DNA of 64,000 nucleotides from Candidatus Latescibacterota bacterium (GTDB lineage Bacteria > Latescibacterota > UBA2968). This document shows positions 34,214 to 37,200 of the stretch, piece after piece. The notes below the pieces were generated by a model. That model did no database searches. It saw nothing but the letters and a program-made list of their open reading frames with translations, and had not been told where the DNA came from. The translations under genes were made by a program, and so were the position numbers. Position 1 is the stretch's first letter, and the number at the start of each line of letters is the position of its first letter. The stretch is taken from positions 4,832,001 through 4,896,000 of the forward strand of contig OZ220741.1 of assembly GCA_965116885.1 (NCBI GenBank). The letters run 5' to 3'.

Positions 34214-37200
34214 TTAATCGTCTATCGGCAACCCCACAAATAATCGACTGTATTCATCTGTCAATGGATCGCGCTCGCCCTTTTGCGCTGCGCGGGCAAA
34301 TACCACACCCGGCTTTTCCGACCTGCGCGCCCGCGCCAAAACGCCATATCCACCTGGCGCACTCTGCGTTTCCAGATCGCTCTGAATCGCCAGCATCTCC
34401 GCCAGCGCATTGGCCAAACCCCAGCGCGCACCAATCGCCCGCGCAAAAAGCTCCTCTGGCGTCAGCCCCTCTCGAAAACCGTGCTTCAAGGGCGTAAATC
34501 CACCCTGGTCATTCCGCGTCACGCCCTGGGGAGCCACATAAAGTCTAACCTGCTGCCAATTGGCACGCGCACCACATGCCACCAGAAGCGCGGGAATCCC
34601 GAGATCATCGTCGTCATATTCGCGAAACTGCGCCAACACAGCCGACACCTCATCGGGATAATCGCGCCAGACATCTGGGTCATCGCCCTCTGGCGGATCG
34701 GGCCAATCGCGCGACGAACCGATAAACGCACTCATCGACGCACCTGTCTTGCGCGTAGCATCAAAACCCCGATCCCACAATCGCGCAGATAGATCCAATG
34801 CCGCCTTCGAGCCATCGCGCGCCATTGCAGCCGCCATCCAGTCCATCACCTGATACTTATCGACAAATAACCCCTTTCGCTCAACCTCATCGCCGACAAT
34901 CTCCGCAATCTCCTGCAACCCCTCGTCCGTCATACTCATATACGCCAGGCCAAACAGCGCGTCGTGCATCGGGTGTACCTTCTCCCGTGCAATCAGCCCT
35001 GGATCCCGATTTAAGTGAGCTACTGCCGACAGATGTTCTTCAGCCGACCGCTGTCCCTCTTCAGTCACCGGCACAAAAATCGCCACCTGATCGCCATCAA
35101 AATCCATATTCATCATCTTGCAAATCGCCACACTCACGCGCACAGCATCGCCTTTCACGCGTACCGGACGACACGCCACAAAAGCCATTGGCGAAAACGC
35201 GGGATTGCGAAGCACCACAGTCCATAACTCAGCCATAGCCGCATCCAGCGCTTTCTCCGCTTTTTTTGACCGCCTATCCACTTCTTCAGTCCCCACCTCT
35301 CGCGCGGCAAACGGCCCAAACAACGTCCACGCCATCTCTTCGGGCACACCGACCTGATCGTATCGCAATTCAGGTGCAGGCACAGCCACTGAACGCCCGC
35401 TGAACAACGCGCGCGCCTGAAATTGCAAACGCGACAACTCGCAAAATGCGCGAACTCGCTCAGACAGCGTCTCGACCACACGATCCACCAATATATCTGG
35501 CGCGCCATTGGCAATCATCTCACTCAAGCGGTTGTTGGCCTCTCGCAATTCTCGGGGCACATCTCTCCCACTCACATGAGTCAACGAATGCCCCGGCAAC
35601 CACGGATGCGGAACCGAACGCGCAAGCGCGACATCCCCACTGCGCTTCAACGAAAACTCGATGCCGCGTTCATCCAGTTCAACAGCCACCCCACCTTTTG
35701 ACAAATGCCCAATTAGCTCATCAAACTGAGGGGAAGGCGCATTAGGAGTAACAGGTCCCGCAACGACGCGGTCAGATAGAGTATCGGCATCATCTCGATC
35801 TACCGCGCACGTATTGAACAAATCGCCAATCACCCCAAAAGCACCCGCTTCTCGCAACGCCAAAAACTCTGTCTCGCCCAACCCCTGGCTTCGCTGATCT
35901 AATTTTACACTTCCGGGAACGGCTTGGCGAAGATCTGCGGCGGTTTGACCTAACTCTCGATCTCGTTTCCCCAGCTTCACACCAGCCTGAATTTTATCCG
36001 CCGCCAAATGCACCGTGCGTCCCCAATACACCCACCCTACAGTGGTGCGACGCGGCAGCGTATCCCCATTTAGCGTCAACGCCTCCATACCGTCTTCTGC
36101 CAGCTCTAAACCTTTCAAACGAGCGCGTATCTCATCGTCTTTTGGCGCATTGAGCGCGGGAATAATAACCGGCTCCCCCTCGGCCTTTGCAATGCGCCCG
36201 ACCACAGCTTCGCGTACCTGTCCAATATTCAACCGCGACGGCAAACCACACACACTTACAATAAGCTCCACAGGCGTGCCATCCGGCAATTTGGGCATAT
36301 CCTCATCTCGCAAAATGCGCGACACCACCCCTTTAAAACCGTGTCGATTACTCAGCTTATCACCCGGCGCAACGCGATTGGGCAACATCATCCGGTTCGC
36401 CGCGGATTCGCTGATCACAACTGCGTCTTCATGTGTATCTCCATTCCACGCCATAAACGCGGTCAGCAAATTGTACCCCGTCCAGAAATGCGGATCGCGC
36501 GGTTCACACCCCGTTTGCACCAGCGCGGGTTCCGACTCCAAGACGGGTTTGAAACCCGTCTCTACATTGCCGTCATATTGCGCGTGATACGCGTGCCACG
36601 CGCCCTGTTCATCGCGCTGCATATCGGGACTCGGCGCGCCAATCCACTGCCGCATCATATTCACGCCCATCAAAACGCGATTGGTATCATTGTGTTCCAA
36701 AAACGGAACCACCGAAGCGCCTATCCCCAACCGCTTTTCAGGTGCATCGTCTTCAATCACCAGCTTGCCATCGCGAATAGTTGCCCCCTGAGCCACCTCT
36801 AAAATCCGCGCGAGATTCGGTCCCTCGGGCGTGCAATATGGACACACGCGCCCATCGTGCGACGGATGATAGCAATTCTCTATCCCCTCATCGGCCTCAC
36901 CGATAATTGGGATCAACGTCACCCGCCGCAAATGAACGTACATATCCTGCAAATTGGTCGCCTGCAAAGACTGTGATGTGGGTTCTTCCATAAAAAATGT
37001 GTGAATCCAATCCCCCAACGGCAACCATGTTTCAACGGCATCTCCCAGCATCTCTGGCATATTTTCCAACCGCTCGGCAATATAATCGCGCAATTGCTCC
37101 CCTACACACCGAATCTCAGCCCGCGCCAAATCCACATCAGTCGGCACGGGAACCACCGTTAAAAAAAAGCCATCTACCTTAAACCGTCCCCAATCGTCGG

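Follow-up and report, generated by a model that had tools for sequence, protein, structure and literature searches.

A pruned single-chain RNA polymerase encoded beside its own extracytoplasmic function (ECF)-type sigma factor in Candidatus Latescibacterota and other bacterial phyla

The window analysed here is a stretch of 64,000 nucleotides from a Candidatus Latescibacterota bacterium (assembly GCA_965116885.1, contig OZ220741.1, positions 4,832,001 to 4,896,000 of the forward strand), and its subject is a minus-strand gene encoding a single-chain mini RNA polymerase (RNAP) together with the ECF-type sigma gene and the promoter that precede it. The pair seems to be a second, so far undescribed machine for transcription that occurs in bacteria of several phyla. 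Relatives of the polymerase are encoded in 187 stretches across 185,579 species genomes, and all locus comparisons given below use the best 80 of these stretches. The features of the transcription unit and its borders are as follows.

34214..37393, minus strand: mini RNA polymerase gene, 1059 amino acids plus stop, a trimmed beta followed by a trimmed beta' in one chain
37466..38611, minus strand: gene for a 381-amino-acid tetratricopeptide repeat (TPR)-like protein with a weak TPR_12 match, occupying a clade-specific cargo slot that separates the sigma and polymerase genes; seen in 2 of 80 loci
38643..39236, minus strand: ECF-type sigma gene, 197 amino acids from TTG 39236 (Sigma70_r2 2e-18, r4_2 9e-15; TIGR02937 1e-35)
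39259..39284, minus strand: ECF-type promoter TGAACC-N14-CGGTGTC, TGAACCTTCGGGCATTGGGCGGTGTC, ahead of the sigma gene
34157..34193, minus strand: intrinsic terminator ending the operon, a 16-pair stem and T tail 21 nt past the stop codon
39371..39398, minus strand: terminator of the upstream two-gene unit, a 12-pair stem and T tail dividing that unit from the sigma operon

Because the hairpins at 39398..39371 and 34193..34157 close the upstream unit and the operon, respectively, the transcription unit runs in the order promoter, sigma, 381-residue TPR-like insert and polymerase, leaving outside it the DksA/TraR-finger and 315-amino-acid protein genes upstream and the BlaI/BlaR1 genes downstream. 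The polymerase is contained in an open reading frame (ORF) at 34214..37423 on the minus strand, whose numbering is used for all polymerase residues (the start is residue 11 and the last is 1069). Its true start is Met11 at ATG 37393, giving a protein of 1059 residues that ends at 34214, because this methionine was invariant across the aligned relatives (n=46) and follows a GAGGAG ribosome-binding site at a distance of 7 nt. The same 5.56-Mb single-contig genome holds a normal rpoB (1266-residue frame) and rpoC (1372-residue frame) approximately 340 kb away, and the mini-polymerase gene is therefore extra and paralogous.

Domain architecture of the mini-polymerase

Pfam comparison of the polymerase returned Rpb2_6 (8.4e-39), Rpb1_2 (2.2e-15) and Rpb2_3 (2.3e-4), while phmmer against PDB sequences related its first half to beta (3.5e-44) and residues 670-832 to beta' (1.4e-26). 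Deletions were mapped with a family profile made from 46 sequences and aligned to E. coli K-12 beta and beta', on which the landmark numbers for flap, lid, rudder, zinc-binding domain and trigger loop, like the other domain names placed on E. coli numbering, are those we assume to apply. The profile blocks were the following.

Residues 65-92: approximately E. coli beta 119-147 (weak)
Residues 132-212: E. coli beta 494-577
Residues 223-277: E. coli beta 652-706
Residues 305-342: E. coli beta 786-823
Residues 346-437: E. coli beta 1055-1146
Residues 414-586: E. coli beta 1177-1342, the very end of beta
Residues 572-623: approximately E. coli beta' 76-131 (weak), opposite 'LASPTAHIWF'
Residues 623-831: E. 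coli beta' 267-515, with a 25-column gap right behind the coiled coil
Residues 848-898: approximately E. coli beta' 590-640 (weak)
Residues 941-1010: E. coli beta' 719-790

Placed on the window, the parts of the chain read as follows.

35666..37393, minus strand: beta-derived half, residues 11-586, in which the fork/Rif region, both active-site motifs ('ED' and 'GDK..KG') and the C-terminus of beta are retained, without lobe or flap
36368..36397, minus strand: flap deletion point, the 10 residues 343-352 between an 11-residue motif (332-342) and PGDK (353-356)
35609..35668, minus strand: fusion junction, in which the beta end ..VAVELDERG is followed by about 12 residues and then the beta' 'HPWL' strand, with zipper and zinc-binding domain absent
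35444..35551, minus strand: clamp coiled coil, ELREANNRL to RVRAF, residues 625-660, aligned to E. coli beta' 267-306, with model helices at 624-638 and 643-660
35402..35446, minus strand: rudder deletion point, 13 residues from the coiled coil to FSGRS (switch 2 region), with a 25-column gap relative to beta'
35090..35110, minus strand: catalytic NMDFDGD, residues 772-778, with D774, F775, D776, G777 and D778 invariant in 46 sequences
34364..34459, minus strand: bridge helix, residues 989-1020, full length, one continuous model helix; the profile aligns it within beta' 719-790 and the VIA structural alignment ends at beta' 788-800
34217..34363, minus strand: C-terminal tail of 49 residues in three short helices, in place of about 600 residues that include the trigger loop, SI3, jaw and second zinc site

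An earlier sequence-only reading of this DNA had named the flap, zinc-binding domain, lid, rudder and trigger loop as deleted, and this is borne out by aligning the family profile with the E. coli subunits as well as by two AlphaFold models, but its list was incomplete. In the profile alignment, E. coli beta 148-493 (lobe) was unmatched in the mini-polymerase along with 824-1054 (flap region), and from beta' the absent stretches comprised 1 to about 88 (zipper and zinc-binding domain), 132-266 (including the lid), the rudder stretch, about half of 641-718 (rim helices) and everything past about 800. At the flap deletion point E. coli beta has 231 residues (824-1054) in comparison to exactly 10 in the mini-polymerase, matching the approximate distance first read between the 11-residue motif and PGDK. 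At the junction, the profile alignment has beta stopping at 1342 and beta' beginning at about 76-131 (weak, E 0.024), and no cysteine occurs between residues 540 and 660, so the Cys4 cluster is indeed absent after the fusion point.

Overall, the alignment indicates that domain loss is selective and family-wide, with both barrels, the coiled coil, switch 2 and the full bridge helix kept. The clamp coiled coil, the presumed docking site of sigma region 2, lies where the sequence-only reading had placed it, and in the 46-sequence alignment its P642 and L645 were invariant and N630 and R632 nearly so. A 13-residue bridge-helix motif was likewise correctly located (residues 998-1010, window 34394-34432), although only the N-terminal part of the helix had been recognised; the helix is complete, since the model shows it as a single uninterrupted helix from 989 to 1020. 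The chain had also been thought to pass from there into the beta' C-terminal helices. The best local match of the tail is in fact beta' 1331-1354, but the likeness was not significant, as shuffled sequences scored as well in 120 of 500 cases against the whole of beta' and in 21 of 500 against its last 108 residues; VIA leaves the tail unaligned, and homology of the tail to the beta' C-terminus was dropped. There is no room for a trigger loop, because only 49 residues in three short helices follow the bridge helix, and the Pfam domain Rpb1_5, which carries the trigger loop, had no match in the mini-polymerase. Elsewhere in the genome, Rpb1_5, Rpb1_1 and Rpb2_45 matched the canonical rpoB and rpoC only, with no separate supplier gene; neither a diverged flap or trigger loop within the chain nor a gene supplying these parts was found.

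The AlphaFold2 model of the polymerase, made from the 46-row alignment, had a predicted local distance difference test (pLDDT) score of 89.1 and a predicted template modelling (pTM) score of 0.88, and a second AlphaFold model of residues 590-1069 had a pLDDT of 83.9. All of the best 50 Foldseek matches of the model in PDB were RNAP beta or beta' chains. Over residues 1-590, VIA followed beta/Rpb2 chains along their whole length (Z about 29, 454-539 residues aligned), as in model 5..590 against C. thermocellum beta 8i23_C 3..1165 (Z 29.1, root-mean-square deviation (rmsd) 2.8, 539 residues, 31% identity). It aligned 374-413 residues of the 590-1069 model (Z about 29) with E. coli beta' positions 102 through 788-800, where the rmsd of 10-14 is as expected because the chain is flexible and multidomain.

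In the rifampicin-pocket stretch at 36900-37030 (residues 132-175), Q stands at the position of E. coli beta D516 and S at that of F514, while H526 and R529 are kept. If these positions have the meaning for rifampicin resistance that we assume for them in E. coli, the mini-polymerase may bind rifamycins poorly.

The family and its catalytic residues

The same deletions recur throughout the family, a point that the sequence-only reading had proposed for checking. A protein search over 5.8 billion proteins gave 576 matches among 8000 candidates scored; among the best 120 of these, 114 were 900-1068 amino acids long and the few with source names were called 'hypothetical protein'. Searching with the 161-residue junction region against 1.84 billion cluster representatives gave 143 matches (86 at E <=1e-10), of which 63 were at least 900 amino acids long, all of these within 917-1101 amino acids and with the junction always at about residues 450-700, and no intermediate with a flap or trigger loop occurred among the 143. 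Regular-expression measures agreed with this: the ED-to-GDK gap had a median of 16 residues in 89 relatives in comparison to 244 in E. coli, GARxGL lay a median of about 72 residues from the C-terminus (67 relatives, with one outlier of 246) in comparison to 630, and 0-3 cysteines surrounded the H-x-W motif in 108 relatives in comparison to 5.

The records of the best 80 loci are titled Latescibacterota, Poribacteria, Gemmatimonadota, Planctomycetota, Chloroflexota/Anaerolineae and Hydrogenedentota. Within the phylum of the window, the polymerase was found in 54 of 151 sampled genomes, including 19 of 19 in the genus of the window, with a patchy distribution elsewhere. One single-contig genome (G067) has two full sigma-polymerase pairs at separate sites, and a 400-contig assembly (G151) has a complete pair plus another that is truncated by the end of its contig. 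Sponge or coral-reef metagenomes account for most of the labels on the DNA runs in which the stretch occurs.

Three features of the two-barrel RNAP superfamily are present, namely the D-x-D-x-D beta'-type barrel, the ED and GDK..KG beta-type barrel and the bridge helix. In the 46 sequences, which share 44-94% identity, beta-side D333, G354, D355, R360 and K364 were invariant in addition to the NMDFDGD residues listed above. The residue ahead of the Asp triad varies among the relatives (P0002-P0262): about 79 of 175 have N, about 44 have E, about 31 have D, and the others have Q, G or S. The N of NADFDGD reads the NTP ribose in canonical RNAP.

This conservation bears on the role of a decoy, which had also been put forward from the sequence. 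As a non-catalytic sigma sink or anti-sigma-like decoy, the protein would hold the sigma by region 2, its gene occupying the usual position of an anti-sigma gene in ECF operons. The polymerase does lie directly downstream of an ECF sigma in a cassette with no recognisable anti-sigma domain, it retains the clamp coiled coil, and the Asp triad is broken in 5 of 175 full-length relatives (e.g. P0054, P0105, P0158, P0192). Nevertheless, D-x-D-G-D is present in the other 170, the active-site residues of the beta side, along with switch 2 and the bridge helix, show little or no variation between phyla, and 1059 residues of conserved catalytic fold would be superfluous for a decoy, a role that we regard as highly improbable.

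The sigma partner, the promoter and the proposed mechanism

A dedicated sigma factor is the one conserved partner of the polymerase, being its single conserved neighbour when 1250 ORFs from the 80 loci were clustered. It has regions 2 and 4 only in about 200 amino acids and scored 122.5 bits against TIGR02937 (cut-off 42.9). Its length is taken as 197 amino acids because the promoter is followed by GGAGGA at 39248-39243 and then by TTG 39236; the longer ORF from a GTG start overlaps the promoter. A same-strand sigma just upstream of the polymerase was detected by phmmer on stop-to-stop frames in 77 of 80 loci (the clustering, with its ORF filter, had caught 65), and two of the three loci without one are contigs cut at the polymerase gene. 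The stop codon of the sigma overlaps the start of the polymerase by 4 nt (ATGA) in 23 of the 77 loci, and the gap between the genes was at most 22 nt in 39, at most 142 nt in 59 and more than 1 kb, with an inserted gene, in 10.

In the phylum sample (n=151 genomes), 54 genomes had the polymerase, 51 the sigma and 50 both. The five unpaired genomes comprised one with the sigma at a contig edge, one with a polymerase fragment at a contig start, two with truncated polymerase genes, both of which lie in complete chromosomes without the sigma, and one with an intact polymerase. Viewed from the sigma, it occurred without the polymerase only in that first case out of 97 polymerase-lacking genomes, and in none of the other 96. 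The linkers of ECF sigmas are usually variable, whereas here the linker joining regions 2 and 4 is conserved in an acidic run and in a VPxWMID motif, with P121 and W123 in at least 90% of sequences.

Complex prediction for sigma residues 10-206 with polymerase residues 300-1069 gave a score of 0.52 in comparison to 0.00 for the best of three controls, with runs agreeing in at least 31% of contacts and a partner pLDDT of at least 67. In calibration, 116 of 157 solved complexes passed the mark, as did 2 of 215 mismatched pairs; only 18 of the 157 passed it at scores of 0.60 or less, together with both of those mismatches. Since sigma-core complexes have already been solved, the score may reflect only likeness to them and is not proof of binding.

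TGAAC followed by G(C/T)GTC was found within 160 nt before the sigma start in 67 of 75 loci across phyla, and the spacing from GAAC to G(C/T)GTC was exactly 16 nt in 65 of the 67 sites; the window locus itself was counted among the eight misses, its region having been taken upstream of the over-long GTG start. GAAC-N16-CGTC-like sequences are the usual pattern of autoregulated ECF promoters. Recognition of -10-type elements only, as once suggested for this polymerase, is disfavoured because a -35-like TGAAC and a -10-like G(C/T)GTC are both conserved at the canonical ECF spacing. With a weight matrix from 47 distinct sites, the sole match above 20 bits in the 5.56-Mb genome was the operon promoter (35.8 bits), the next best scoring 18.5, and there were 2 matches above 18 bits in the genome in comparison to 1 in the reversed-genome control. 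As the matrix was trained on the sigma promoters, the single match in 70 of 80 loci is circular and only the lack of a second match is informative; no second site was found in the flanks, up to 8 kb, of any of the 80 loci. The promoter pattern gave 3-6 matches in five other genomes and 0-5 in their reversed controls. Of six extra sites from these genomes, one was intergenic, ahead of a carbonic anhydrase gene, and is unconvincing as a sign of a regulon.

Contigs from RNA libraries were found in 4 of 4 runs (3 studies) on the polymerase, the sigma and the upstream genes at 90-100% likeness. These runs (X15-X18) are assembled contigs, from which start site, strand and level are unreadable and in which uncovered stretches say nothing. 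Several of the contigs stop near 39288-39290, but their ends are loose, a pattern resembling differences between strains in the region ahead of the promoter.

We propose, at odds slightly better than even, that the pair forms a sigma-dependent, autoregulated mini RNA polymerase that serves as a second transcription machine of the cell. An rpoB-rpoC pair would have been fused end to end, and nearly everything outside the barrels, bridge helix, switch 2 and clamp coiled coil removed. The resulting core would pair with the adjacent ECF-type sigma through the clamp coiled coil, and the two-protein holoenzyme would start at TGAAC-N16-G(C/T)GTC before its own operon, creating a positive feedback loop, after which elongation would proceed without trigger loop, flap, lid, rudder, jaw or rim helices. 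The architecture, its conservation, the intact catalytic residues, the strict pairing with the sigma and the promoter are shown by the data, whereas binding of the sigma to the mini-core and not to the host core alone, RNA synthesis by the enzyme and whatever it transcribes besides its own operon are inferred. Because the lost parts are absent, the mini-polymerase would be unresponsive to regulators acting through them.

Several observations weigh against this proposal. In a normal holoenzyme the beta flap sets the -35/-10 geometry by holding sigma region 4 at this distance, and the spacing here is the canonical 16 nt of ECF promoters although the flap is absent. Either the mini-core places region 4 anew, perhaps via the conserved linker, or the promoter is read by the sigma on the host core, which may be the case because the flap that sets ECF spacing is missing from the mini-polymerase. 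With flap, lid, zipper and zinc-binding domain gone, there is also no enclosed RNA exit channel. The nine other, weaker promoter matches examined (7 by regular expression, 2 by weight matrix) all lie inside long ORFs, and no regulon is visible in the genome. At one locus (L038, the same as G153; 7735-11144) an intact 1047-amino-acid polymerase has no sigma orthologue or promoter match and only an 89-amino-acid frame ahead of it; either this locus is decaying or its polymerase is able to do without its sigma. Finally, the complex prediction gives weak support only, and the RNA-library contigs, though compatible with expression, may include DNA carry-over.

It may instead be that the sigma serves the host core only and switches the operon on, while the mini-polymerase is sigma-independent, as the prophage enzyme YonO may be, and finds nicks, ends, single-stranded or foreign DNA by itself. 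The 16-nt spacer in 65 of 67 sites would fit a flap-bearing holoenzyme, and the typical region 2 and region 4 of the sigma, the one genome with an intact polymerase gene and no sigma and the lack of a visible regulon are all in keeping with it; furthermore YonO, a single-chain two-barrel RNAP, transcribes well without a known factor in the available text of its description (PMC5467207). What this explanation leaves unaccounted for is the retention of a sigma-docking coiled coil where the neighbouring lid and rudder were deleted, a sigma found alone in only 1 of 97 polymerase-lacking genomes, and there at a contig edge, and the conserved linker motif of the sigma. The 4-nt gene overlap in 23 of 77 loci further suggests stoichiometric co-production, and the complex score of 0.52 against 0.00 adds weakly to the same side. 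Sole service to the host core thus seems unlikely to us, and we retain the sigma-dependent mini-polymerase as the preferred explanation.

Neighbouring genes, known polymerases and wider meaning

The slot between sigma and polymerase holds a TPR-like protein of 381-396 amino acids in the window and in one other locus (L015), and in sister loci (L006:6150-8012, L017:6032-7792) a 586-620-amino-acid ATP-binding cassette (ABC) transporter with membrane and ATPase domains fused; the ABC transporter cluster occurs in 13 loci, not always in this slot. Slot cargo would be transcribed from the private promoter. The upstream two-gene unit (39430-41404, minus strand) encodes a 344-amino-acid protein with an N-terminal DksA/TraR C4 zinc finger (3e-8) and about 270 further residues, and a 315-amino-acid protein, which occur in 17 and 18 of 80 loci, respectively, all of them Latescibacterota. 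It is curious that a secondary-channel-type factor adjoins a polymerase with shortened rim helices. The 315-amino-acid protein had no match in Pfam, NCBIfam, PHROGs or PADLOC, and its Atlas scores of at most 0.88 are leads only. The sequence-only reading had named the TPR protein and alpha among the factors to be added in assays; neither neighbour held up in such a role, as the 315-amino-acid protein has no likeness to alpha and both it and the TPR protein are clade-specific (18 of 80 and 2 of 80 loci). With the DksA/TraR-finger protein at 17 of 80, these neighbours were dropped as suppliers of the missing parts. No alpha or omega gene was linked to the polymerase locus, and the mini-polymerase may use host alpha or omega.

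Directly past the polymerase terminator (27030-34068, minus strand) lie two tandem pairs of BlaI-type repressor and BlaR1 (M56 peptidase) genes interleaved with genes for WG-repeat proteins, the BlaR1 sensors having two and five TonB_C domains; homologues of the pairs were found in 15 of 80 loci. At 42453-44193 (minus strand) an MjaI-family restriction endonuclease (4e-64) and an adjacent N4/N6 DNA methylase, together a restriction-modification pair, are encoded between uvrB and a quinolinate phosphoribosyltransferase gene. Leucine-rich-repeat, dockerin/EF-hand and HEAT-repeat proteins are encoded at 20356-25361, which fits the sponge labels of the DNA runs, eukaryote-like repeat proteins being typical of sponge symbionts.

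Across the family, the polymerase neighbourhoods consist of ordinary metabolic and housekeeping genes that differ between clades. A defence origin was rejected, as PADLOC gave no match. A phage origin was rejected in turn, with no relative in 2.9 million viral contigs and none of 38 matching phage records covering at least 80% of the polymerase; the 15 listed of the 38 look like ordinary rpoB/rpoC, and PHROGs matches were only to two families of full-length phage subunits, one for beta (1191 positions) and one for beta' (1216 positions).

The mini-polymerase shares with the canonical core (RpoB and RpoC) and an ECF sigma both double-psi barrels, an NADFDGD-type triad, GDK..KG, bridge helix, switch 2 and clamp coiled coil, and with the canonical ECF holoenzyme the type of partner and the promoter layout. 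In contrast to that core it is one chain of about 1059 residues in comparison to 2749 in E. coli, lacking flap, lobe, zinc-binding domain, zipper, lid, rudder, trigger loop, SI3, jaw and second zinc site and having shortened rim helices. It descends, as judged from its sequence, from bacterial beta and beta' but falls outside the rpoB and rpoC orthologues and the full-length beta-beta' fusions, scoring 170.1 bits against TIGR02013 (rpoB; cut-off 801.15) and 113 against TIGR02386 (rpoC; cut-off 963.5). With the full-length fusion models NF011417 and NF007172 (about 2840-2890 positions), which we take to be the Wolbachia and Helicobacter fusions, it has in common beta head-to-tail with beta' in one polypeptide; those fusions, however, have complete subunits and are the sole RNAP of their cell, and the scores were 170.5 bits (cut-off 4632) and 166.1 bits (cut-off 5372).

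Similar in general form is YonO of the Bacillus prophage SPbeta, which the available text of its description (PMC5467207) presents as a single chain of about 100 kDa with two barrels and without trigger loop or accessory domains. It is there said to have, apart from a few residues, 'no sequence homology' in the active centre, to be prophage-encoded and to have no known factor, whereas the mini-polymerase is plainly beta/beta'-like, chromosomal and accompanied by a dedicated sigma; the two are set apart by this description of YonO and not by sequence comparison. Organism names of the phage tblastn matches included no Bacillus among 10 of the 12 listed. The reduced RNAPs of jumbo phages (phiKZ, AR9) and the crAss-like virion RNAP also have two barrels and many cellular domains missing, but, in the parts of those reports available (PMC4666361, PMC7598289, 10.1101/2020.03.07.982082), they are phage enzymes, are split into several polypeptides or form part of a giant virion protein, and are very divergent.

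The comparison with YonO also bears on whether the protein could be a primase-like or signal-making enzyme, as the sequence-only reading had suggested; without trigger loop, lid and rudder, its products would be limited to short oligoribonucleotides or primers. Among the parts it has lost, rudder, lid, flap and zinc-binding domain serve to stabilise the elongation complex and to separate the RNA, roles discussed in the accessible portion of the YonO paper (PMC5467207), and to this extent their loss would agree with such an enzyme. The same text, however, reports that YonO, which has no detectable homology to these elements or to the trigger loop, synthesises RNA 'as efficiently as msRNAP' (multisubunit RNAP) and is more processive than it (PMC5467207), and the short or slow products once expected of the mini-polymerase do not follow from trigger-loop loss. 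Moreover, there is no conserved nearby partner of the kind that a signalling or priming system needs, nor any PADLOC match, and we consider this role quite improbable.

No published description of a family of sigma and pruned polymerase was found in full-text searches of openly accessible papers, and term look-up in PMC2919709 and in the ECF reclassification paper PMC7826278 (main text and one supplement) likewise did not return it. The YonO paper, in its available text, regards the five-subunit core of about 400 kDa as a fixed feature of cellular transcription (PMC5467207). Against this background, we tentatively suggest, short of regarding it as probable, that the operon encodes a complete second two-protein transcription machine, a 118-kDa single-chain core with a private ECF sigma, operating beside the normal polymerase and blind to signals that act through the lost parts. 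If true, neither hairpin pausing and termination nor Gre/DksA-type factors would act on it, nor would many of the antibiotics and phage inhibitors that work through those parts. Because its only strong promoter is its own, conditional or foreign DNA may be what it really transcribes, or it may serve as an emergency core that accepts other sigmas of the cell.

Such an enzyme would be the smallest natural sigma-dependent RNA polymerase and would reveal which parts of the bacterial enzyme are dispensable, representing a natural deletion experiment, with about 60% of the mass lost, on the need for flap, lid, rudder, zinc-binding domain and trigger loop. The specific promoter makes the sigma-core question directly testable in vitro, and sigma, promoter and polymerase may offer a compact orthogonal triple for synthetic biology. 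For the organisms themselves, the finding raises the question of what role a second polymerase would play in Latescibacterota, Poribacteria, Gemmatimonadota, Planctomycetota, Chloroflexota and Hydrogenedentota.

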